Virus record (IMG/VR): IMGVR_UViG_3300046171_000223
Span: 1-56,850 of that record
DNA length: 56,850 nt
Direction: 5' to 3' (one strand)
From: a virus
Lineage: Duplodnaviria > Caudoviricetes
The translations under genes and the position numbers were made by a program. Below the pieces are notes generated by a model. The model did no database searches and had not been told where the DNA came from. It saw only the letters and a list, made by a program, of their open reading frames with translations. Below, one piece after another: positions 3,768 to 55,356 of this stretch (the stretch's first letter is position 1; each line of letters starts with the position of its first letter).

Positions 3768-3864
3768 AGACCTCGACATCATCGGGGTCTCACAGAACTG
3801 GACATCTGAGTGTCTATGGGGTTCGACCATTATCTGACAATTCAGCCAGATAACGGATGTCCAG
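3768..3864 (+). promoter_or_regulatory. Palindrome followed by a three-way-junction leader hairpin with ACAATTCAGC loop
   Basis: AGACCTCGA-catca-TCGGGGTCT (3768-3790); CTGGACATCTG/CGGATGTCCAG outer stem; TTATCTG/CAGATAA inner stem. Confidence 0.65.
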
Positions 3865-3886
3865 CACACTCTAATCGGAGAACACA

Positions 3887-4742: not shown

Positions 4743-5149
4743 CTAAGTTAAATAAATCCTCTATCGATTTTCCAAATCCACAACCGTGTCCGTTCGCTAA
4801 GAAAGCGATCAACACGAGGTGCGATGCTTTCCTTACTGCAGATCTGGAGATCCCTTACGAACAGCAGGATCAAGTCACACTACCTGAACTGCAGATCTAT
4901 CACTCTCGACGCACTGATGGTGTGATTGATTACTATACACAAGGACAGTATCACTATGTGGATCATATTGTCGCAAATCTAAAGCTAGTCTGTGACGATT
5001 ATGATCGCAGAGGAATTGAGTACTACCTATTCTGTGATGCTAATTATTGCGATCCAGATTGCGAGTTCGACTATGTGCTCTGGTTGCCCAATGAACCTCA
5101 TATGAATTCACTGGTCAAAGGATCTCCGAAAGTAGAGGAGGTCGCATGA
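4739..5149 (+). CDS. Hypothetical early protein
   Basis: 136-aa ORF, CGGAG RBS, coupled to both neighbours. Confidence 0.7.
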   Translation: MTKLNKSSIDFPNPQPCPFAKKAINTRCDAFLTADLEIPYEQQDQVTLPELQIYHSRRTDGVIDYYTQGQYHYVDHIVANLKLVCDDYDRRGIEYYLFCDANYCDPDCEFDYVLWLPNEPHMNSLVKGSPKVEEVA

Positions 5150-5481
5150 TACAGACAAAAGAAGTATATCTCGTTACAGTTGAATTTCAACCTATGACAG
5201 ACGGGGTGTGGGACGGAAAATTCCCAAGTCATTGGATTGTTAAAAAGTTTTACACGTTGAGTAGTGCGATTATTTTCTATCGCAAATACGCTTATCATGA
5301 AAACACTGTTTCTTGTTTTGTAAGTGCTCCAATTCAATCATTAAATACAGTGGCTTTGACGAAATGGGAGTTTGAATCCGTTGACTCTATAGTAGATAGA
5401 GAACTGGCTTTCCAATCTGGATTACCTCACGAACAGTTCGATGAGGACGATCCTCAATATGATCCCGAGGAGGTCGCGTGA
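5146..5481 (+). CDS. Hypothetical early protein
   Basis: GAGGAGG RBS, ATGA overlap. Confidence 0.7.
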   Translation: MIQTKEVYLVTVEFQPMTDGVWDGKFPSHWIVKKFYTLSSAIIFYRKYAYHENTVSCFVSAPIQSLNTVALTKWEFESVDSIVDRELAFQSGLPHEQFDEDDPQYDPEEVA

Positions 5482-5609
5482 TGGTCTTCGACTATGTCCT
5501 ACGCTTTTGTGTGTTTGTTCTACTATCATCAATTAGTTTTTTGTTGATCACACCTTTGATCCTTGACGCTTTGTCATTCTGGTCAAAAGTGTTCAAGCTA
5601 ACCTTTTAA
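5481..5609 (+). CDS. Small hydrophobic membrane protein (42 aa)
   Basis: MVFDYVLRFCVFVLLSSISFLLITPLILDALSFW...; GAGGAGG RBS. Confidence 0.55.
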   Translation: MVFDYVLRFCVFVLLSSISFLLITPLILDALSFWSKVFKLTF

Positions 5610-5624
5610 ACAGAGGATCTAACA

Positions 5625-5969
5625 ATGACAGGTAGACCTATCGAACATGATCTGACAGACGAGCAATTTGGATATCTGATTGCCAAACGAGTTGCGTACA
5701 CGAAACCTGTTAAAGGCGCATACTGGTTATGCCACTGCACCAACTGTAAAGGAGAGACAGTCAAGTCCAGAAGTAGCTTATTAAACTGTTCAATCAACTA
5801 TTCGTGCGGTTGCCTTTACGGTTTCCGTACCCGAGTAGCCAAGTTATCAGGTTATGCACTACCAGTAGTTTCTCAAGCACTCAATAACAAAGGGTTGATT
5901 TCTGTTAAGATCAGAGACCATATCAAGCGAGTGGCTAAAGAACTCAAATCTAGAAAAGGATGGAAATAA
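5625..5969 (+). CDS. Cys-rich (HNH/AP2-associated type) domain fused to a LacI-like HTH
   Basis: FGYL...WLCHCTNC...SCGC, then VAKLSGYALPVVSQALNNKGLISVKIRDHIKRVAKEL. Confidence 0.65.
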   Translation: MTGRPIEHDLTDEQFGYLIAKRVAYTKPVKGAYWLCHCTNCKGETVKSRSSLLNCSINYSCGCLYGFRTRVAKLSGYALPVVSQALNNKGLISVKIRDHIKRVAKELKSRKGWK

Positions 5970-6220
5970 TGGAAACACTGCATTTCGTCGAAAAGAACTC
6001 TACTCTCTGGCATACCCTCTGGGCTAAGTTGTGGGAGCAAAACGGCAAACCCCTTGACGAGTATGGAGTACCTGATTTCTCGGAGTACAACCCTCAGTAC
6101 AATGAAATGTGGCAATATATGGGTACAGTAGATAAAGGGTCTAATCAACAGGAGCACCAGTTCCGCCACAGAGCACACCCTTCAAACAATGAAAGAAAAT
6201 ATATTTCAATCATCATCTGA
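5969..6220 (+). CDS. Hypothetical phage protein
   Basis: TAATG coupling; WQYMGT...HQFRHRAHP motif. Confidence 0.7.
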   Translation: METLHFVEKNSTLWHTLWAKLWEQNGKPLDEYGVPDFSEYNPQYNEMWQYMGTVDKGSNQQEHQFRHRAHPSNNERKYISIII

Positions 6221-6226
6221 ATTTAC

Positions 6227-6261
6227 TTGACTGCTCACGAGATCCCGAGTATCTTGTGATC
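6227..6261 (+). promoter_or_regulatory. Sigma70-type promoter with CTCACGAGATCCCGA spacer
   Basis: TTGACT(6227)-17-TATCTT(6250). Confidence 0.75.
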
Positions 6262-6264
6262 TTA

Positions 6265-6485
6265 CCAGATCTGGTAAGGGGTTGTCCCTGTTAGTTGTCT
6301 TGTAGCTTGGACAACTAAACCAGATCTGGATGTCTGCTGAGTGGGCAATCCCGAATTATCAAGTTTGGTAGACCTAGTATTCGGGAGTGCCTTGTATGGA
6401 CTCTCATCTTTAAATTGCAAGGCTGTTTCATCGTCAACTGCTGTTCAGTAGTCAGACGGTACAAGTCCCTTGCGAGATGAGAGTC
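6265..6485 (+). ncRNA. Candidate structured RNA or long structured leader with three stem domains
   Basis: Stems 6265-6275/6319-6329, 6344-6356/6379-6391 and 6399-6409/6475-6485 with nested helices; own promoter; no ORF in the track. Confidence 0.6.
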
Positions 6486-6515
6486 ACCCTCACCTCACCT
6501 AACTATCGGAGTGAC

Positions 6516-6920
6516 ATGTTATCCAAAACTTTTAATTACTGGACAGTACTTAGTGAGTCTCCTCCAGATATTGGAGATCCCAACAAAAAGTACTTGTACT
6601 GTCAGTGTGTCTGTTGCCGCAAACGACATGTACGAGAAGACGATTTAAAAAGTGGGAAGTCAAAGTCCTGCGGTTGTTCTCGTTCTGCAGGGTTGCTGAA
6701 CGTTGTTGGTCAGAAGTTCAACTATTGGACAATTCTGTCTATCGGTAAAATTATCAACACTCATCGGTATGTTAAGAGTCAGTGCGACTGTGGCTATATT
6801 GCCAATTTAAGACTTTCAGCAATTAAACAAAATCAATCTAAATCCTGCGGTTGTACTCGTGCAAAGAAAACCAGACATCCTAGTGATAGGCAAACGCAAA
6901 GCGAGAGAGTTGCTAGCTAA
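6516..6920 (+). CDS. Protein with two tandem CxCxC...KSCGC domains and no visible nuclease domain
   Basis: FNYWTVL...CQCVCC...KSCGC and FNYWTIL...QCDCG...KSCGC; TCGGAG RBS before ATG 6516. Confidence 0.7.
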   Translation: MLSKTFNYWTVLSESPPDIGDPNKKYLYCQCVCCRKRHVREDDLKSGKSKSCGCSRSAGLLNVVGQKFNYWTILSIGKIINTHRYVKSQCDCGYIANLRLSAIKQNQSKSCGCTRAKKTRHPSDRQTQSERVAS

Positions 6921-7128
6921 TGGGGAAGCAGAAAAGCTAAACCCTGTTCGTGATGAATTCACTGGCATCGTCTTTCAGACCATCTATTGGAAACGCAAAG
7001 ACTTACACCTTCACTACCTACTGAGATTACCCGATGATTCATATCGTCAAGCACCTGAAAAACAAAACAGAACTGTTGGTGACCGAAGACTTTCAAGAAG
7101 CAGTCAACGCCAACGTCAACCAGCCTGA
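6859..7128 (+). CDS. Possible hypothetical protein (overlaps both neighbours)
   Basis: GTG-start ORF with protein-like N-terminal two thirds that fills the 6920-7034 gap. Confidence 0.35.
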   Translation: MQRKPDILVIGKRKARELLANGEAEKLNPVRDEFTGIVFQTIYWKRKDLHLHYLLRLPDDSYRQAPEKQNRTVGDRRLSRSSQRQRQPA

Positions 7129-7207
7129 TACTTGGGTTGATACTATCGATGCAGACATAGAAGACATAGAAAAATATCCTGACTACCCTGATGTATTAAC
7201 CTTTTAA
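7034..7207 (+). CDS. Small acidic hypothetical protein (57 aa)
   Basis: Hand translation MIHIVKHLKNKTELLVTEDF...PDYPDVLTF. Confidence 0.55.
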   Translation: MIHIVKHLKNKTELLVTEDFQEAVNANVNQPDTWVDTIDADIEDIEKYPDYPDVLTF

Positions 7208-7786: not shown

Positions 7787-7815
7787 TTGAGAGTATCGGG
7801 AGTCTGTGGTATACT
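7787..7815 (+). promoter_or_regulatory. Sigma70-type promoter of RNR
   Basis: TTGAGA-17-TATACT with TCGGG half-site in spacer. Confidence 0.7.
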
Positions 7816-20164: not shown

Positions 20165-23100
20165 CTATTGAGCTACTGCTTCAACTGAAATTATGCGTAC
20201 AGGTTTTTCAAAATCTGGCAAATTTTTCAGTGCTCTGTTGACTTTCTTTAGACCCTCCATCAATCGCTTACGCTTCTCTAAAAATTCCAGCTTTTTCTGA
20301 CGCTTCCCTTCTGCAGTGGTCTGCTGCTTGATAGCTGTCCGTTCTCGGTATCGATCACTCCTGAGTTCTTCAATAATCCTGCTACGTCTAAACTTTAAGC
20401 TGTCTTCAATGTTTGCTGGTCTGTTTGCAGGGTTAAAGAGTAGTGGCGAGTTCAGTGGTAATGTCAGTACATCAAGCATACTCTGTGGGAACTCCGCTTG
20501 CGACAATCCTGTCAGGTCGGCTTTACCCAAGATTTGAGTTGGAGTTAGTTTTGGCTTTCCTTCTCTGTCGAGAGTAGCAGAGTCTAAACCAAGTCCGCTT
20601 AGAAGATTCGGATCACCAGATACAGTCTCTAACATTTGCTTACCCCAACCACTCGGTGCAATGAGTTGAGGTAGTACCCCATCTGCAAAATGTAAGAGTG
20701 CTTTCTTGGCTTTCTGACCACCAGTGTCGAACTCGCTATACAGTGGTTTGCCCGTATAAAGATTTTTATTGGCAGACTGCTCAATGATCTGTTGCAAGAT
20801 CGGATGATTCGTAAATCCTAGATCAACAAATGCTTCGAAAATGGGATATCGATCATCGAACATCGTATTGAAGAATTGATAGATGAATGCATGTGGTGCA
20901 GCATAACTATAGTCTTTAATCTGTATTCGATCATTCTCATCTTTTTCGGGCATTGGCACAGCAAAGAGTCCTTTCTTGCGATACCAATCGGGTAGCCCTT
21001 CATAGAATGCATCACGTTCGTCATCGTCCAGATCTGCCATCTTCATTGACATTGCTGCGTAGAGAATGCCGTAATAAGCAGCAGCCCGGAGTGATGCTTT
21101 TGGATCTCCCATCATTCTAGTTAGACGATCTACTGTTTTGTATGTCCAAGTTAGGAAGGGAGCACCAAGCAGAGACTTTCTGAGCTTACGAACTTTTGGT
21201 GAGACATCACTATAGTCGTAGAGCCACTTGTTTGCCTCACGCATTGCTTCTTGAGGAGTGAGCTTGTCTTCATTGATAAATGGAATCCCTGCTACGTTAG
21301 CACCTTTATCTTCTAGATACATTGCCAATGCAAGCTTGTCAATAACTTCAAGTGACTGATATATATTACCAAATCCGTTGAAAATCTTACCAAATATATT
21401 GGCTACTTGGGCATAACCGTCTGCTGATTTAAGGTTTGGAAACCAACTATCATCGTACATAATTCGACGATCTTTTGGTGTCAACTGCGTTTTAAAGTTA
21501 GACTGCAATCGACCTAGTTCATCGGCAGCAAAAGTAGACAGTGTAAGTCCCTGATCTTTATAATCTTGATAGCGACTTCCGTTGGTTGCCATCTCTTTGA
21601 TTGCTTTGGCCCGATACTGCAAATTCTGATGAATCGGCAAACCTCCAAAAGCCATCATCGCTGAGTTAGAGACGACGTTGTTGACCCATGCAACAGGGTA
21701 AGCTGCAGTTGCTCCCCATTTAAATAGAGTGTTTATTGTGGCAACCCCTCGTTCAAGCGATTTAAAAGAGGAGTCTTCATTTGTAAAGAACGGATCTCCT
21801 GCCACAACATCAGCAATCTCTTTTAAGACATGTGCCCCTCGTAAGTCTCCATAACGATTTGTATTTGGCAACTGACGATACTTGTCTACAGCATAGTTCG
21901 GTATGTCTGCTCTCGCTTTGTTGGCTAAGTTGCTGTACTCACTAATGATTTCTTGAACCAGTGTGCGTTGAGCAGAACCTAATGGCTTAGACGGTAAAAT
22001 CTGATCCTGTAGTCTTTTTGCTTCAGCCTCTAAAAACTCAGGAGATACATTACGATCAACAGCCTGTCGAGTTGCAGCAGGTAGCCCTTCCTGAATCAGT
22101 TGTGGCCCTAGATTGTTACGCTGAATAATGTCGTTGGTCAGCTTGGCAATGTTGAGTTTGACCTGAGATGAGGGCAGTACCCATTGCTTGTTCTGAGCGA
22201 CTTCTTTCAAGAAATCCATTCGGGCTACATCTTGTCCAGCTTGCATAATGGTTTGACCCACTAAATAACCTGGAGACTTGATTTGGCCTAGATACATTGT
22301 TCGAATCAGCGGATCGATATCTCTCATCATCTTGAGATATCCTTGTGGTGACACTTTTAGAGATCCTCCTGCACCACTGAACAGGTTGTTGTCATCCAGA
22401 TACTTCAGGTAGAGTCTCGGTAAGTATTGTCCGCTTCTCGCTTTAAAAGTTTGAGGGTCTAACAAACCTTGACGTACTAGATCTCGTCCGATTCCTTCGA
22501 TGATTTCTTTTGCTTCAACTGCAGCTTCTCGGAGTGTTGGGTTTTCTCGGTTAAATCGTTTACGAATCTGTTTTCCGATAAACCCTCTAACTTGTCGATC
22601 AGGAATGGTATTCGGATCAGCATCCCGATCTGTCATGTAATCATAGATCAGCTTTTGCTCTGCTTCATTGGCTTCCATCATTACAGAGGCTAACTTTTGT
22701 CCTGCTTCGACATATTCATTCTGGACACCTTTTGCTCGTTGCAGAATTTTCTCAAAGAACTCCCGATCTGGAACCAATGCTCTCGGATCAAAGGCTTTAT
22801 TGAGTCCATCCAGTGCTCTGCGTAGTCCTCGTTCTTGTTGTGTACCTGTTGTATTCGGAGGAGGTGTCTGCTGACGGTTAGAAGAGAATGATGCTTCAGG
22901 GTTCACCTGTCGGGCAACAATCCCTCTTCCTACGGGTGCAGGGTTGTCGTAGCGTACTGGGTTTTCCATCGGATATAGATACTTCTGACCGTTATCTTGA
23001 ATGTCAAAAGTAGATCCTTCAGGAACCAGATGCAGATCCTGCAAGGCTCTGAACTGCTGTTGATTGACTACTTGAGGTTCGCCTACAGTGACCTCACCAA

Positions 23101-26100
23101 TGGCTTGAGCCTGACCTTCTCCAGTACGGACAATTGCCATTCTCTGACCTACATAAGGTCTCAAAGAATCTGTATTTCTAGACTCTAAAAATTTCTCTCC
23201 ATCGACAATTAGGTCAGCATAAGATCGTTGCGCTTGTCGGTCTGTACGAACATTGATGCCCATTTTAGGACTATCAGCCCGATTAGAAGAGAAACTTCCC
23301 ATCGGAGATAAAGTTACAACATCGTCATCCTGATCAGCTTGCTGACTAGTTTCCTGACTAGTCTGGTCTGGTTGACTTGCTGGAGTCTGGCTGGTCTGTT
23401 GAGGTTGCTCACCCTGAATGTTCTTCAGTGCTTGCAGACGAACCTTTAATTTATTTAGATTGTCTAACTGGTTATCTGATGCTCCATCTTTTTGGTTGGC
23501 TTCCTGAATCTTTGCATCCAGAGCAGCAAGTTTCTTTCTAGTATTTTCAATAGCAGTGTCTAGTATTTGAGTGTCTTTGGCAGAATTCGTGTTGAACTTC
23601 TTTGCCAGATTGAACTCTGTTCGGGACACTGCTGCCTCATCTGGTGCAGAATACCCAAGCATATCGTCTTGTTGGGTTTGTTCAGGGACAACAACTTGAC
23701 CACTCATTTCTAGTTCTCGAAGTGCTAGAAATTCAGCTAATTTTGCTCTGACTTTATTAGCTTTAGTATTTGTGGGAAGTTGCAGTTGTTCTGAAGAAAG
23801 TCCCTCAACTAGAGGCTTGACATCTTCTAAGATTTTTTCTCTTGTTGCTAGAAACTCGTCTACATCTTTAATCCCTTTTACTTTCTCTTTAGCTTGGTTA
23901 AGTTGTTTTTCGGTTGGATTCGGTACTGGTTTACCATAAAACCTATGTTCTCCTGAATAGTTTTCGTAAAAAATGTTCTGAGATAAGGTTTCCTCATCAG
24001 GTTCCGGTGCATCTGTGGTTTCTGTAGAGGCTCTACCTGTCGGTCTGATGACGATCTCTGGTTTTCTACCTGCTGCTAAAGTGTTATAGACTTGCTGGTA
24101 CTTACGCTTGATTCCAACATCTGAGGTCTCACCCCGTAGGACAGCAGTCACCGTGTCGAGTATGCCTAACTGCTCCACACCCTGCTCTGTAAAGTTAATT
24201 GCTAGCCATTCGCTTGCTCTGCGTACAGGAGTGTCATCAGGGAGTCCGTTCGGGTATTCATTCTTGATGAAGTTGTCAATTTCCGTTTGTCGATTCTTAT
24301 AGACTTTATTTGCAAAATCATTGTAGCGAGATCCAAGCATCTGCATCAGACCAGCATGTCCAATTGATTCGTGATGGTAGATCTTCACTCCCTTTTCAAT
24401 TGCAGAACGTAAGTCTTTGCCTTTGAGGTTCTCACCAATTAAATAGACAACGTAACCATCACCTTTACGAAAAGTTGCGCCTTCAATACCTGTAACGTCA
24501 GCAGGGATGTTTTCCCGTTGCTTGAGTTCTTCTGTCGTGTCCAGCACGACAACTTCAGATGCTTCAGGAAAATACTGACTCATTACATCTTTTAGAACTT
24601 CTAATTCTCGTTGCTTGAGAATTTCCTGACCTCGTTTGGTGTCTGGATTAACTTTCACACCATTGAGAACTTCCGACTTCTTAGTAGTCTCGGGACTTAA
24701 ATCAAATGTTAAATCAGCAGGTTGATCCATTTCTGCTTCAATGTCTCTTGCATCCTGTAACTCTTGCAGTCCTGCTGCTGGATCTTGAGTGATATCTTCT
24801 TGAAAGGTTTCACTTTCTGCATCTGCAACTGCTTGATCATCTGCTAAGACTGCTTGAGTAGTCTCTTCAGATTCCATCTGATCGATCTGACGAATTATAT
24901 CTTCATCACGTTCAACTCGGTTTCTTATACCCTCTAAGTTGGTAGCAAGAGTTTGAGCTTGTTGTTGGGTCTCATCAAAGATTTGTTGATCTACTGCTTG
25001 GTCTTCTTCAGTTTGCAAATCAAAAGCTACTTCTCGACGTAATTGGTCATCAGCTTGTGAAACATTTTCAATTTGTTGTTGCAGATCTGCCTCTGCTTGG
25101 ATTTCTTGTTCAATCTCCTCATCCACTTGTTGAATCGGTGAGACCTCATCAGATTCTAGATCAAAGCCACGATCTGTAAATGGCATGATCTCGTCCAGTT
25201 CCTGTTCAATTTGTTCCAACTCTGCTCGTGTCAACGGTTGCTGTTCTGCAAGTTGTTGATCTAGTTCGGCAAATGCTTGTTCTTCTTCTGTTTGGACAGG
25301 TTGAATAGATCGTGTACCTTCTTGATTAAATGTTGGAAGGTCTAACTGTTGACCGACACTTGGTTCTGGTCGTGCAGCTTGTCGATAGAAATCGATCAAT
25401 CTTTGTTCTTCTTGAGCCTGTCTAGCAGTTTCTTCATCAACCTCAGTTTCCTGTAAGGGTTCAAAACCGGGACTTTGTCGTAGAGGAGGAATGCCGGGTA
25501 GGTCTACTTGGACGGTTACTGCTGAACATAGCAAAACGGGGAGTCTGTACTCGTCGGTTCTGTCTTGGCAGTAGCACGTTTTTGCTTGGTTCTCTAGATT
25601 TGTGAAATAATTGAAACTCATCACCTACTCCCTCTGCTAGCTGTCTTTCTGGTTCAGCTAAAACATCAGATTCTGGTTGAGTTGTAGACTCTAAGAATTG
25701 TTGACTGCGTTCTAAAGACTTACCTACATACTCCTGATACCATTTACTAATTTTCCGTTCTTTTGGTTGCAGTTCTCGTCCGTTATCTACTTTATTGTTG
25801 ATCCCTCGGATAGTGTCCTGAAACTCAGGTTGAGTGACGAGGTCTTCTGCTAGCGCATCATTGTTGCCGGAAGAGTCTGGATATTTTCAAAAATCTTGTT
25901 GGTCATTCTGCTGAATCTCTTCAGGATTTCCAACAGGTCGATTGATGGATGGAGATGCTACCTGCTCAACAAGACCAACGCTACCAGAGACAGGGAGTGA
26001 AGCAACAGCACCCATTGCAGCACCTTCTAGCACTGCTTCAGGGATTTGCCTTGATCCAATCCCAAACGGTTGGTGATTAGAGTCGGATCATTTTGCAGGG

Positions 26101-29191: not shown

Positions 29192-31726
29192 TAGTCTATC
29201 CCATAATTAGAGAGTTCATCCTTCAACCAATCTGGTACGTCTTCGTTCCTATCTTTAAACATATTCTCTAGTGTTATGTAATTAAACTTGTCAGAATTTA
29301 GATCCTGATTGAAATCAAGAATCGATTCGGTCGCATCTTTGCCCTTCCTGATTTGCAGTATTTCGGAGGTTACCAAAGGCATCAAACTCATAACCTAAAT
29401 TCTGGAATTTTTGACGATAGAAATCATTATTCAACCCTAGTTTAGTGTTGAACTGAGTTTGATCTGCTCCAATACCTGTCAGGTTTGTATCCAAAACGGT
29501 ATTTAAACCAGACACACCTAAGTCCGCTTGATTCTTGTTTGCATTATAGATCTGACCGATCATATCTCGTCTAGTATTTAGCCCCCTCTAGTTTTACTCC
29601 ATACAGTGAATCCAGAGCATTCATCTGCTGGCCCCCATCGAATTCATGACTTGCCTGATAGGCGTTACCTGCAGAATTCAGAGCAGTGGTTCGGGTTGCC
29701 CCAGCATCTGCTGGCCCAATCCGTAGGAGTCCAGAATCGCTTGACGGTTTGCAGAGCGTTGAGCGTCAGATCTAGATTTCGCCAAGTCCATCATTGCAGA
29801 CGTATAAGCTGGTGAAGAGGTGTCCATTCCAGCGTTGGCGTACATCTCCTGCAAAGAAATCTCTTGCAGATCGTGAGGATCTATCTATCTGATCTGTAGC
29901 ATCCGCATAGAGTAGGTTCTTTAATTTGGTATAGTAATTTTGATCTCCTGCATCTGCGGCAACATCCATTGCTGCATCGGCTACTGTCCCAAGTTTCCCT
30001 CTAGTGGTTGCCATTTCACCACCTGAACTAACTTGAACTCCATCTTTTTCTAATGCGCCTGTATCCTCATTGACCCGTAAACTCTTCACCATTTGGCCCT
30101 GTAAACGTCCCATCTTCATTTTTCCGGTAACCGAATTGGGACGCATTTGCTGAGTTTAATGGTACTCCCCCCCGATTAGTGGAGACAGCGCAGTTTCATA
30201 GTCTCTGTACGCCTGATCATACAGACCACCCTCACCCCCTAATGCTGTGATGTCCTTTGTAAAAGTCTCAGCAGCAAGTCTCAAGATCACTTTGATAGTC
30301 TAAAAAGCCTTTGATGGGGTTACCGTCAGGATCAAGAATGTCGTTTCCTTCAGCATCCTTTCCGGTAAGAAATTGAGTTAGTTGAGCGTTGATTTGTCCT
30401 GCAAAATCTTGCTCATCGAATTCGGCTAAAGTGTCGGTTGCGAATTGATCATAGTCATCTCGTAAGCCCACCTATCTCATCAGCGAGTCCTTGCTGATCC
30501 TGAAAGAGTTGATCTTCCGTATCCTGCATCTGGTCGGCACGTTCGCGGCAATCCCACCTACGCCTAAAACGCTCCCCGTCTTTCTCTCCTCCAACATAAA
30601 TGACCTGATTATTATCCGCATCAACTGCGAATTCTTGCGAGGTAGTGTTCCCTGCTTCGTCTGTAGTAAGTAAGTAATATTTTTTAGAACCATCTTGCTG
30701 GACTTGTTCTTCGTATTCAACATTGTCGTTTTCATCTGCATAATCTCTTAGACTTTCTAAATCACTACTACCTAAAACCGTGTCACTTGCAGCATCTTGT
30801 GCAGATTGCTGGGGTGTGTCTGCAGTGGGCAACGGAAAACAGTGGTTTGGTCAGTGGGAGTTATCCCCGTATTGCTGTTTATTAGGGATTAAAACCTGTG
30901 CCAGTTCCATCTCCAGTTCCATCTCCAGTTCCATCTCCAGTTCCATCTCCAGTTCCATCGCCAGTTCCATCTCCAGTTCCATCTCCAGTTCCATCTCCAG
31001 TTCCAGTATTATCGTCATTAGAAGGAGTGTTGTTAATTAGTATATCCCCTAATTCTTTTGTGTCAGAGTCTTGTGCATCGCTCTGGGCTTGAGTTAAAAG
31101 TACTTGAAATTGCTGACGATCTTCTCCAGATTGTTTCCAAGTATCTGCTAAATTAGTAATGGTATTAGAAACAGCAGTAGCATCTCCCCAATTTTTATTT
31201 TCTAAATAAGTTTGAATTTCTGCTGGCGTTGCCCCGTAAGACTCAAGGTTTGTAACTAAAGTGTCTAAGTTAGTGGTGTAATCTCGTACAGACGAAAGAT
31301 TTCGGTATTTAGAAACATACTTACTTTGGCTACTATTAGGATCGACGTTTCCACGACCATATGCCCCTAGAATAGCATAAATTTGTTCTTTACTTGCATT
31401 CTCAAATTCTTCCCAAGAATCAGCTATCCCTGTTGACTTTAGTTGGTCTAAAGTTAGTATCGAACTAGATTTAATAAACTTTTTTAAATAGTCTAAATCT
31501 TGAATTTGCTCCTTGGAAAAAGTACCCGTAAAGTTTCGATTTCCGTCAATAACAGGAGTTACGAAAACTACGCTCAAATCGAATACCTAACGCATCAATT
31601 CTATTATTAAGGTACTGAGGGTCATATGGCCCCTGACCCGACCATTTTTTTTTGCATGTTGTTCCAATCAACACTATTGGAACCTACATCCAGTGATTTG
31701 TAATATTTTGAATAATCGACTGCCAT
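29191..31726 (-). CDS. Large virion protein with TGDG repeat, fragmented by frameshifts
   Basis: ATG 31726 (MAVDYSKY) with GGAGG RBS; several co-linear acidic ORF fragments to stop at 29191. Confidence 0.55.
30901..31007. repeat. 12-bp tandem repeat (CCAGTTCCATCT), 8 full units plus a partial; encodes (TGDG)n
   Basis: Directly visible; one unit variant ends in CG. Confidence 0.95.
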
Positions 31727-40012: not shown

Positions 40013-41986
40013 TTAAATCACGTTTAGGGTTCCGGTTATATTTAACGCACTCGCTGAAGTAAAATTTGCAAAACCGTGACTGATGACCAAATAACCAGCC
40101 ATCGTTCCACTACCACTAAAACTTGTGTTGCCAACATACATTCTGTTGGTCCCTGCGCTAATCGCTAGCGAGTCCGATACGGTTGAAGAGTGTTCGATGT
40201 AAGAACTACCAGAGCCACTACCACCGGTAGCTGATAAAACTCCTGTACTTGCATCAATACTTAAATTCGTTCCAACTTTGAAGCCACCTAATGCTGAAGC
40301 GGAAGCAATCGGAAGGCTATAATTGTTTGCGTTCGCAGCTATCCCGTCTAATTTCGTTTTATCTGTACTAGACATCAACCCGGTAGCAGAAGTTGTAGCT
40401 ACCGAATAAGTAGTATCGGTATCCGTTGCGTCAAGAACACCATTGGTAATTGTAAGGTTTGCACCGACTTTTATCCCACCGAGAACAGATGAAGATGCAG
40501 TAGGAAGCGAATAGTTGTTTGCGCTTGTTGCAACACTGTCCAATTTCGTCTTGTCTGAAGAAGACATTAAACCGTCGGCAGAAGTAGTCGCTACTGAATA
40601 CGTTGTATCTGTGTCGGTGGCATCGAGAACTCCGGTAGTGCTATTAATTGTCAGATTTGTGCCAACTTTAAAACCTCCTAGATCGTTTGCTGTAGCAATT
40701 GGTAAGGCATAATTATTAGCGTTTGTTGCTATCCCATCTAATTTCGTTTTGTCTGTACTAGACATCAGCCCATCAGCAGATGTAGTTGCTGCTGAATAAG
40801 TAGTGTCAGTGTCTGTTGCGTCTAATACACCCGTTGAATTATTAATTGTTAAATTAGCACCAACTTTGATACCACCTAAACTGTTTGTTGCTGCAATGGG
40901 TAAGGCGTAGTTGTTAGCACTTACTGCTATTCCATCTAATTTTGACTTATCTGTAGAAGACAGTAATCCATCAGCAGATGTAGTCGCTACTGAATAAGTA
41001 GTATCGGTATCCGTTGCGTCTAATACACCAGTTGAATTATTAATTGTTAAATTAGCACCAACTTTGATACCGCCTAAACTGTTTGCTGCTGCAATGGGTA
41101 AGGCATAATTATTAGCGTTTGTTGCTACCCCATCTAGCTTTGATTTGTCTGCAGAAGACAGTAATCCATCAGCAGATGTAGTCGCTACTGAATACGTTGT
41201 ATCTGTGTCAGTGGCATCAATCTGTTGGGTGCTGGTGTTGTAGGTCAGGTTTGCACCGAGACTCAGACTGACACCGATACTCCCACTTGTGGTAACAGGT
41301 GATCCTGTGACGCTAATTCCGTTTGATCCTGTGATGCCGACAGAAGTAACTGTGCCTGTTCCAGCAGCAACCCATTCAATATCATTCGTTGTGCTATTTA
41401 CTGCTAAAACTTTTCCTGCGTTGTTCGTGTAGCTTGGGAGAATGCCTGAAGCAGTCTGGGTTGGGAGAGTGACGTTGGAAGTAGTGGTTCCGTTGGAGAG
41501 ATCAAAGTTAATCGTGGTTGAGTTGACTTGATTGACATCTGTGACGCTTACTCCGTCACTTCCGTCTTGCCCATCTACTCCGTTGGTTCCGTTTGTGCCG
41601 GGATTCCCTTGATCTCCCTTTTGTCCTGTCGGGCCAGCAGGGATCGTAAAAGTAGGAGTGGTGCTGATACTGTAAGTTTGCCCGTCTTTTTGATAAGTAA
41701 AACTCATCGTGACTGTTGAAAGGTCAACAGACTGAGACAAGCTTACTGTATCGATTGCTGGGCCTTGCGGCCCTTCCGGGCCTTGGATATTTGCATTCGT
41801 CGGAATATCAGCATAGAAGGCAGAAAAATTAGCGTAAGTAGCATTGTTAGAATCTTGCACACCGGATGGCATGGGAATGTCATCAAGATCCAATAAAATC
41901 GGGTTAGTTTCTAGATCAGACCCTTTAACTTTTCTAGTTTGGAAGACAACGGTTTGACCTGCTGATCCTTGGACTGATACCGTCAT
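40013..41986 (-). CDS. Tail fibre protein with collagen-like segments and five 66-aa repeats
   Basis: GxY triplets; DGLMSSTDKTKLD and LGGIKVGANL repeats; ATGA overlap with adaptor gene. Confidence 0.85.
   Translation of the reverse strand: MTVSVQGSAGQTVVFQTRKVKGSDLETNPILLDLDDIPMPSGVQDSNNATYANFSAFYADIPTNANIQGPEGPQGPAIDTVSLSQSVDLSTVTMSFTYQKDGQTYSISTTPTFTIPAGPTGQKGDQGNPGTNGTNGVDGQDGSDGVSVTDVNQVNSTTINFDLSNGTTTSNVTLPTQTASGILPSYTNNAGKVLAVNSTTNDIEWVAAGTGTVTSVGITGSNGISVTGSPVTTSGSIGVSLSLGANLTYNTSTQQIDATDTDTTYSVATTSADGLLSSADKSKLDGVATNANNYALPIAAANSLGGIKVGANLTINNSTGVLDATDTDTTYSVATTSADGLLSSTDKSKLDGIAVSANNYALPIAATNSLGGIKVGANLTINNSTGVLDATDTDTTYSAATTSADGLMSSTDKTKLDGIATNANNYALPIATANDLGGFKVGTNLTINSTTGVLDATDTDTTYSVATTSADGLMSSSDKTKLDSVATSANNYSLPTASSSVLGGIKVGANLTITNGVLDATDTDTTYSVATTSATGLMSSTDKTKLDGIAANANNYSLPIASASALGGFKVGTNLSIDASTGVLSATGGSGSGSSYIEHSSTVSDSLAISAGTNRMYVGNTSFSGSGTMAGYLVISHGFANFTSASALNITGTLNVI
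40235..41218 (-). repeat. Five tandem ~198-bp coding repeats (one unit 192 bp)
   Basis: Unit DATDTDTTYS...TGVL; 984 bp = 328 codons. Confidence 0.9.
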
Positions 41987-54333: not shown

Positions 54334-54440
54334 AAGGCAAAAACCATGCAAATTTTCTGATCATCTTACTACAAAACGAAAAAAAAGCCAAGACTAGCTA
54401 TCAAATAGAAAAAAATAGATAAACGATCAAAAGACCATTA

Positions 54441-54850
54441 AACAAGACAGACAAGACAGGCAAAAAATCAGACTGTTTTTCTCTATGTCGCTGATATCAT
54501 AGTTTTTTCTGTCCTATAACTACAAGACAGGCAAAATATAAAACTTTTCAGCAGGGGGAAATATCACTATTTTCGTTACATAATTGTAAGATATGTAACT
54601 ATTATCTTATATTTTACCTTATACTTTTTATATTTATTATTTGCCTGTCTTGCTGTCTTAAATATAAAAAAAGTAATAATAATAGAAAGTTATAAGAAAA
54701 TCTTACTGTCTTGTTTCTGTCTTTTTACTGTCTTGTCTGTCTTATTTTTGGCTATTATTCAAATACTTAAATATTATGGTATTTTAATTATGTTTGGATC
54801 GTGTAACCAAAAACCAGAAATTAGGACAGGACAGAAAAAAGTACTGTCTT
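54441..54850. repeat. Iteron-like AAGACAG/CTGTCTT arrays around an AT-rich core; putative replication origin
   Basis: 3 AAGACAG, 7 CTGTCTT and 3 AGGACAG-type copies in a non-coding AT-rich region. Confidence 0.7.
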
Positions 54851-55262: not shown

Positions 55263-55356
55263 ATATCTTGACACTCTCACGAGATCTCGACATCCTTTTG
55301 ATCTCGTGAGTATTTAGACCGTTTATTTTTTCCTAATTTATCGGAGATCGACAATG
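55263..55356 (+). repeat. Promoter/palindrome/RBS intergenic repeat, copy 1
   Basis: TTGACA 55268; CTCACGAGATC...GATCTCGTGAG; CTAATTTATCGGAGATC; near-identical to 55645-55736. Confidence 0.9.

Follow-up and report, generated by a model that had tools for sequence, protein, structure and literature searches.

We analysed an IMG/VR virus record of 56,850 bp (the window; CheckV completeness estimate 67%) in which a stretch of about 220 nt, at 6265-6485 on the + strand, folds into three consecutive hairpin domains directly after a sigma-70-like early promoter and ahead of a gene for a zinc-ribbon-like protein. The initial annotation had proposed a promoter-driven, highly structured RNA of this length. 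The stretch is indeed structured, non-coding and placed after a promoter, but it is not one coherent 220-nt RNA gene, because only its third domain is conserved and the first two form a lineage-specific indel.

The virus encodes DNA polymerase A, a primase, a helicase, an exonuclease, an integrase, a portal protein, a terminase and a class II ribonucleotide reductase. The closest cultured match of its terminase is that of Roseobacter phage CRP-7 (31.6% identity), and the stretch 5900-7100 is present in seawater and marine metagenome runs; the 24 runs listed for it include no RNA run. All genes between about 600 and 9800 lie on the + strand, the coding strand of the element's neighbours, and the structured stretch falls entirely within a 295-nt intergenic region (6221-6515). 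The features of the locus are:

6227-6255, + strand: sigma-70-like early promoter, with -35 TTGACT, a 17-nt spacer containing CTCACGAGATCCCGA, and -10 TATCTT
6261-6278, unstranded: 18-bp perfect palindrome CTTACCAGATCTGGTAAG, spanning the predicted transcription start
6265-6329, + strand: domain 1, a three-way junction closed by 11 bp and enclosing hairpins of 4 bp (6277-6289) and 10 bp (6291-6318)
6343-6392, + strand: domain 2, a hairpin whose stems of 5 bp and 8 bp carry a loop of 22 nt (6357-6378)
6399-6485, + strand: domain 3, a long irregular hairpin of 87 nt, the conserved core
6486-6515, + strand: linker, unstructured and C/A-rich, with the ribosome-binding site GGAG at 6508-6511
6516-6920, + strand: downstream gene, encoding a 134-aa protein with two zinc-ribbon-like CxC...SCGC repeats

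Is the promoter at 6227 credible? In a consensus scan it matches 9 of 12 consensus positions, and promoter-like sites as such are no commoner in the window than in shuffled sequence (26 versus 22.2). It is, however, one of six intergenic + strand copies of a promoter family (350, 1411, 6227, 55268, 55650 and 56686), which have in common TTGAC, the conserved spacer CTCACGAGATCYCRA and the -10 hexamer. In this family an inverted repeat often encloses the -10 box, in the form GATCCCGAG-[-10]-CGGGATC; clear inverted repeats of this kind are found at 1411, 55268, 55650 and 56686, and that of the 6227 promoter is imperfect (CACGAGATC ... GATCTTGTG). The leaders of 350, 1411, 6227 and 56686 also share a layout in which a hairpin lies a few bases from the predicted start and is followed by an open linker and ATCGGAG. 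Family membership, the repeats of several members and the shared hairpin-first layout make the 6227 promoter credible, as the initial annotation had supposed. Transcription is predicted from the promoter to start at about 6262, which places the stem of domain 1 at +3/+4. Among the large open reading frames (ORFs), a comparison with PHROGs revealed no phage-encoded RNA polymerase, a possible user of hairpin promoters.

Hairpins related to the promoter-family repeat occur at 1425, 1831, 2997, 3768, 6240 and 56491. The motif TAGACYNTY is present in 35 copies on the two strands of the window, against 8.7 expected; downstream of each of the promoter-like sites 350, 7787, 55268, 55650 and 56686, copies lie at a distance of 15-40 nt. 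Near the start of the early promoter cluster lies a 26-nt inverted repeat (54440-54465 / 54722-54747; 88% complementary, arms 256 nt apart).

On the + strand, the segment 6260-6490 reaches a minimum free energy (MFE) of -94.2 kcal/mol (z -6.73), and none of 200 shuffles is as stable. It is the most stable of 494 sampled 230-nt + strand segments (mean -54.5, standard deviation 9.9; next best -82.3). The segment was placed in register deliberately, and the nearest one of the sampling grid (6211) ranks 5th. The - strand also folds strongly (-83.6 kcal/mol, z -6.44), because near-perfect inverted repeats fold on both strands; overall, the + strand fold is more stable by 10.6 kcal/mol. G.U pairs are present in the + strand folds and in the RNAalifold consensus. 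Each domain is compact, very stable and folds independently, with single-stranded spacers in between, and all three folds are kept when the whole leader and the gene start are folded together.

A sequence check and separate folds confirm the three stem domains at the places given by the initial annotation, together with every stem that it quoted. Domain 1 is the three-way junction it had described: its 11-bp closing stem is formed by CCAGATCTGGT/ACCAGATCTGG and surrounds the two hairpins (MFE -35.1 kcal/mol, z -5.99, 0/200 shuffles as stable; - strand z -5.67). Domain 2, whose stems read GGGCA-UCCCGAAU / AUUCGGGA-UGCCU, is the weakest of the three, with a z of -3.18 and 2 of 200 shuffles as stable (- strand z -5.18). 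The lower stem of domain 3, GACTCTCATCT/AGATGAGAGTC, had been given as a perfect 11-bp stem around nested helices and consists of 11 Watson-Crick pairs plus one U.G pair (12 bp). Above it follow a one-sided 6-nt bulge, UAAAUU, and three or four nested helices: first a stem of 6 bp, then a middle helix that varies, and at the apex a 6-bp hairpin whose loop is GUUC. The + strand of domain 3 folds with an MFE of -38.8 kcal/mol (z -6.90, 0/200 shuffles as stable) and its - strand with -32.0 kcal/mol (z -3.90), a preference of 6.8 kcal/mol that is due to the G.U pairs.

Relatives, conservation and covariation

A metagenome scan with the downstream protein yielded four contigs of the same phage lineage, L045 to L048. 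Three of them (L046, L047 and L048) are collinear with the window, and L047 has the same gene order from a 136-aa gene through the ribonucleotide reductase gene. The identity of L046-L048 to the window is distributed as follows:

5467-6180, upstream genes: 79%
6220-6263, promoter: 95.5%, compared with about 76% for the flanking genes
6399-6486, domain 3: 92-94% (5-7 mismatches in 88 positions)
6487-6515, linker: about 70%, with indels
6516-6920, downstream gene: 67%

Against the 24% mismatch rate of the flanking coding sequence, conservation of domain 3 has a binomial P of 6e-6 to 7e-5. High identity ends at the base of the hairpin, which argues for constraint on the hairpin rather than for a recent recombination patch. 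The fourth contig, L045 (88% identical), starts at 6464 and covers the 3' arm of domain 3 only.

The first two domains behave differently. In L046-L048 the promoter is followed by 14 unrelated bases and then by domain 3, domains 1 and 2 (6264-6398) being absent. Contigs from 4 of the 24 metagenome runs were compared as well; the differences reported here are the best-supported of those runs, beside 114 further ones. Contig X2 is identical to the window over 6041-6635. X4, a variant of about 90% identity, has the first two domains complete and the greater part of domain 3, and its listed differences include three indels (6359, 6373 and 6378), all in the 22-nt loop of domain 2. X13 keeps domain 1; its match stops at 6331, 129 unlike letters follow, and a second contig resumes exactly at 6399. 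The X3 contig begins at 6287, inside domain 1. Three architectures are therefore seen: promoter and domain 3 (L046-L048), promoter and domains 1, 2 and 3 (window, X2 and X4), and promoter, domain 1, other sequence and domain 3 (X13). Their breakpoints, at 6263/6264, 6331 and 6399, all lie at hairpin bases.

Could the stretch be a frameshifted coding sequence or a micro-ORF instead? We reject this possibility, which the initial annotation had raised against itself. The bases 6264-6398 are missing in collinear relatives, the region 6486-6515 carries indels of 1 nt and 4 nt, and the three small ORFs across the element match no NCBIfam family. In our reading of alignment A2, all five substitutions (5/5) in the only open frame of domain 3 alter the amino acid.

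Are the predicted helices also borne out by covariation? The signal is thin. In domain 1 of X13, the predicted partners 6279 (G>A) and 6287 (C>T) change together, converting G-C to A-U, alongside a loop change at 6281 (G>A). Domain 3 has 34 pairs: 31 show no variation, one is compensatory (6428-6463, U-A to C-G) and the remaining two, both in the middle helix, are broken in relatives. The compensatory pair lies in a helix register that RNAalifold predicts independently. The observed score is attained by 132 of 500 shuffles, which is not significant, in a set of four sequences of which three hardly differ. Each of these two domains thus offers one compensatory pair, and for domain 3 the covariation does not exceed the shuffle control.

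A second three-way-junction leader lies at 3798-3864 (+ strand), upstream of the gene at 3810/3888, together with a hairpin at 3768-3790. Compared with L046 and L048 (75-80% identity), five of its pairs have changed on both sides and are still paired, a result reached by 7 of 500 shuffles; leader folds in this phage group are evidently under selection, and the 3798 leader is better supported as a structured leader than the 6265-6485 element. The initial annotation had likened domain 1 to this leader. Run over the whole window with filters off, a covariance model (R2) that combines the 3798 leader with its two homologues recovers 3795-3867 at 90.4 bits and does not find 6265-6329 at E <= 10, so the likeness holds for the topology and does not extend to homology.

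The element matches no Rfam family, and the initial annotation had likewise been unable to match it to a known RNA. Rfam 15 gave 0 matches over the whole window at gathering thresholds; a relaxed search of 6150-6600 reached at best E 0.65-9, far below gathering (the DUF2800 RNA, for example, scored 12.6 against 60.2 bits), and ARAGORN detected no tRNA or tmRNA in the window. No match to 5600-7200 was found by blastn among 50,697 phage records. In IMG/VR, a search with the two flanking proteins returned no relatives, scans for exact patterns taken from the promoter motif, the arm of domain 3, the core of domain 1 and the stems of domain 2 gave 0 hits each, and the 43 loci with relatives of the ribonucleotide reductase (all at or below 49% identity) lack the element by blastn and nhmmer. 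Searched with the same two programs, 6221-6520 matches only L045-L048 among 123 other loci. A covariance model of domain 3 (R1) found only its four source sequences in the window and 36 of 124 loci (324,360 bases), and neither domain 1 nor domain 2 has a second copy in the window. The sole species-genome match to the domain 3 arm, L125, is a chance match, since it is a GC-rich Verrucomicrobiota contig that is otherwise dissimilar to the window. The element is, in short, narrowly distributed.

The downstream gene and the rest of the window

The ORF that ends at 6920 is listed with a start at 6477, inside the 3' arm of domain 3; this start is probably unused, and the true start is almost certainly the ATG at 6516. 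The GGAG context, the roughly 70% conservation of the linker with its indels, and the in-stem ATG being out of frame in L045 all point to this. In the linker, L045 and X13 lack 4 nt and X4 lacks 1 nt. In whole-leader folds the ribosome-binding site is essentially unpaired, and its ATCGGAG context is also found upstream of other genes of the phage.

The 134-aa protein matches phrog_374 (HNH endonuclease; E 7.6e-23) in two stretches, both confined to profile positions 194-252 of 617. This is the DNA-binding part only; the nuclease part is absent. A neighbouring gene (5625-5969) encodes one zinc-ribbon repeat and a weak LacI-type helix-turn-helix (HTH) match (E 2.6e-4, below the Pfam curated cut-off). 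Longer relatives in other marine contigs (L049, L057 and L063) combine three repeats with a helix-turn-helix and, judged from the conserved C-terminal sequence, seem to lie directly 3' of ribonucleotide reductase genes, without a long leader. The zinc-ribbon proteins are probably DNA-binding regulators derived from homing-endonuclease modules. The genes 5625-5969 and 6516-6920 look like split parts of the longer protein with three repeats and a helix-turn-helix.

Elsewhere in the window, a 111-aa ORF at 5146-5481 is absent from L046-L048, where the alignments of its flanks overlap by 16 nt (L046 2028-2043). The genes on either side of it end in an identical ...EEVA-stop/ATG overlap. Together, these identical ends and the 16-nt overlap suggest gain or loss of the ORF by short-repeat recombination. 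At E <= 0.001, PHROGs offer no match to an 1819-aa ORF on the - strand (20165-25624). A 659-aa ORF on the - strand contains five to six diverged tandem repeats of 198 nt (40225-41227), and the ORF 30882-31577 contains a 12-nt array, (CCAGTTCCATCT)n, at 30889-31020; both are probably repeat domains of structural proteins.

Readings of the structured stretch

With a probability of about 0.55, we read the stretch as a structured leader at the 5' end of an early phage mRNA, composed of a conserved core hairpin and exchangeable hairpin modules. A 5' leader of about 250 nt fits better than a free small RNA (sRNA), because no terminator follows and the GGAG linker leads into the gene at 6516. On this reading, the 6227 promoter would direct host RNA polymerase to initiate near 6262, and the transcript would consist of three independent hairpin domains, an open linker of about 30 nt with the ribosome-binding site, and the zinc-ribbon gene. 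Domain 3 (6399-6485) would be the conserved functional core. Its sequence and fold, including the bulge and the apical loop, are fixed, while the 3798 leader drifts and compensates; this would point to a specific partner rather than a generic stabiliser. Such a partner might be RNase III, a phage regulator or possibly the downstream gene's own product. Domains 1 and 2 (6264-6398) would form an exchangeable module, gained or lost exactly at hairpin bases beside a promoter cassette resembling those of T4-type phages discussed below. In this lineage, domain 1 would supply a stable stem at +3/+4, where 5' stems protect from decay that depends on RppH or RNase E. We infer transcription and its start, action at the RNA level, a stabilising, processing or operator role, and with these the mechanism as a whole.

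Several points weigh against the leader reading. The transcript and its start are predicted. Since the ribosome-binding site is left unpaired, a translational switch is not apparent. Domain 1 has self-palindromic arms, which an RNA stem does not require and which suggest a DNA site, and on the - strand the z of domain 1 (-5.67) is comparable to that of the + strand while the z of domain 2 (-5.18) is better. In L046-L048, about 14 bases that are predicted to be unpaired precede domain 3, so that it would not act as a 5'-terminal protector there. Covariation is statistically weak and includes two broken pairs; it is suggestive, and too thin to prove the folds. Finally, the differences between runs rest on single low-depth contigs.

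A more specific version of the leader reading, which we consider possible but unlikely, would make domain 3 a new sequence-specific cis-regulatory RNA operator of a marine phage lineage. Bound by the zinc-ribbon protein or another phage factor, it would set the level of an early regulator, and stable hairpin modules such as domains 1 and 2 would be a mobile currency, gained, exchanged or lost at hairpin bases beside promoter cassettes.

Might the repeats act as DNA instead? This is the main rival, possible though on balance unlikely. Domain 1 would represent two palindromic operator copies, bound by a dimeric regulator, perhaps one of the zinc-ribbon/HTH proteins encoded nearby, that represses or loops the promoter, and domains 1 and 2 would be recombination products without an RNA role. 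Each arm of domain 1 is self-complementary. The perfect palindrome at 6261-6278 has a core, ACCAGATCTGG, that occurs again 55 bp downstream at 6319-6329, and the window has just two exact copies of CCAGATCTGG. Across the window, palindromes like CCAGATCTGG (AGATCT-centred; <=2 mismatches) number 50 against 22 expected, and a related AGATCT-centred palindrome, CGAGATCTCG, sits within the promoter spacers at 55280 and 55662. The inverted repeats flanking the -10 box of other family promoters fit this picture, as does the stem core of domain 2 (ATCCCGA/TCGGGA), which resembles the -10 stem-loops of the family (family D5). So do the DNA-binding-type proteins encoded nearby, with their weak LacI-type HTH and zinc-ribbon repeats, and the - strand folds of domains 1 and 2, which are as significant as those of the + strand. 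The palindrome is, however, absent from the same promoter in L046-L048, which therefore does not need it, and the compensatory change in X13 affects the inner hairpin of domain 1, whose arms are not palindromic. Nor can a DNA operator explain domain 3, whose non-palindromic arms, several nested helices and G.U pairs suit a single strand that folds, as opposed to a duplex site.

It is improbable that excision of one or more hairpins from the leader yields stable small RNAs with a role in trans, such as anti-defence decoys. Compact, very stable and independent domains separated by single-stranded spacers would suit such a role, and the conservation of domain 3 down to its loops is what specific pairing or binding would lead one to expect. 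Yet no terminator or U-tract follows any domain, Rfam holds no match, domains 1 and 2 are dispensable in relatives, and no defence-related neighbour was seen. The initial annotation had listed a stand-alone phage sRNA and an array of decoy hairpins among its proposals. The first fits less well than a 5' leader, given the missing terminator and the linker and ribosome-binding site that lead on into a gene; to the second nothing points, the window and the 123 compared loci showing no repeated units or second copies.

We give very little credence to a processive antiterminator, in which nascent hairpins would bind or modify RNA polymerase for read-through of downstream terminators: the hairpins would be transcribed right after an early promoter, as in the put element of HK022 (a double hairpin of about 65 nt just downstream of early promoters, according to PMC8632103), but no convincing terminator follows 6486 before another promoter-like site is reached at 7787 (the sole candidate, 6652-6671, is weak and intragenic), and the other family leaders share no similarity with the domains in sequence or by the covariance models R1 and R2.

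To our knowledge, early phage mRNAs with structured leaders have been described in few model phages, and such leaders are almost uncharted in uncultured marine phages. The locus amounts to a natural experiment, in which relatives that occur together differ in having one, two or three hairpin domains between the same promoter and gene, and with one non-coding hairpin held at 92-94% identity while the neighbouring genes stand at 67-79%. Should this hairpin prove to be a regulator-binding operator or a processing site, it would represent a new small RNA motif and show that leaders exchange whole hairpin modules; should it act as a stabiliser only, the leader is ordinary though unusually elaborate.

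Comparison with known systems

Long irregular hairpins and structured leaders are familiar from early phage transcripts, among them the RNase III processing hairpins of T7 and the RNase III-sensitive leader of lambda N. The present element resembles these in placing long, irregular, bulged hairpins in a predicted early transcript and a long structured leader after an early promoter. It differs in that the bulge of domain 3 is one-sided (6 nt versus 0).

The put RNA of HK022 (PMC8632103) is, like the leader proposed here, a cis-acting hairpin RNA immediately downstream of an early promoter. Here, by contrast, no convincing downstream terminators were found, and no similar element follows the other early promoters.

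The hairpins of Aeh1 mobE and T4 segB (PMC3014915) offer a likeness of context. Structured RNA lies 5' of a gene related to homing-endonuclease DNA-binding modules, and relatives of the downstream protein seem to adjoin ribonucleotide reductase genes. Those hairpins sequester the ribosome-binding site, whereas the present structure does not, and the protein encoded here lacks a nuclease domain.

Stabilisers of the ompA/papA type are a further parallel. According to PMC3997798, mRNAs gain stability from secondary structure at the 5' end, since RppH and RNase E require that end to be single-stranded. The stem of domain 1 lies 3-4 nt from the predicted 5' end, the ribosome-binding site is free, and the same layout recurs in three other early leaders of the phage. 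The ompA/papA stabilisers are single short hairpins, whereas here three domains span about 220 nt behind a predicted start, and the conserved domain 3 is not 5'-terminal in relatives.

Finally, how does the locus compare with the promoter-early stem-loop (PeSL) cassettes of T4-type phages, as described in PMC2839356 and PMC4122927? These are defined by a repeated sigma-70-like early promoter motif in intergenic positions of the early region, of which the present phage has six copies, and several family members carry a potential stem-loop that overlaps or flanks the -10 box, formed at 6227 by an imperfect repeat. The site also coincides with an indel between related genomes, since the indel of domains 1 and 2 starts at 6263/6264, directly after the promoter. 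Unlike the PeSL carriers, this phage is not T4-like, given a terminase nearest to that of CRP-7 and its DNA polymerase A, primase, exonuclease and integrase. PeSL stem-loops, moreover, are short terminators or attenuators in or before the promoter, whereas the structure described here is 220 nt long, lies downstream, within the predicted transcript, and has no U-tract. If hairpin modules are indeed shuffled beside promoters, they would constitute an RNA-structure counterpart of PeSL-mediated shuffling.

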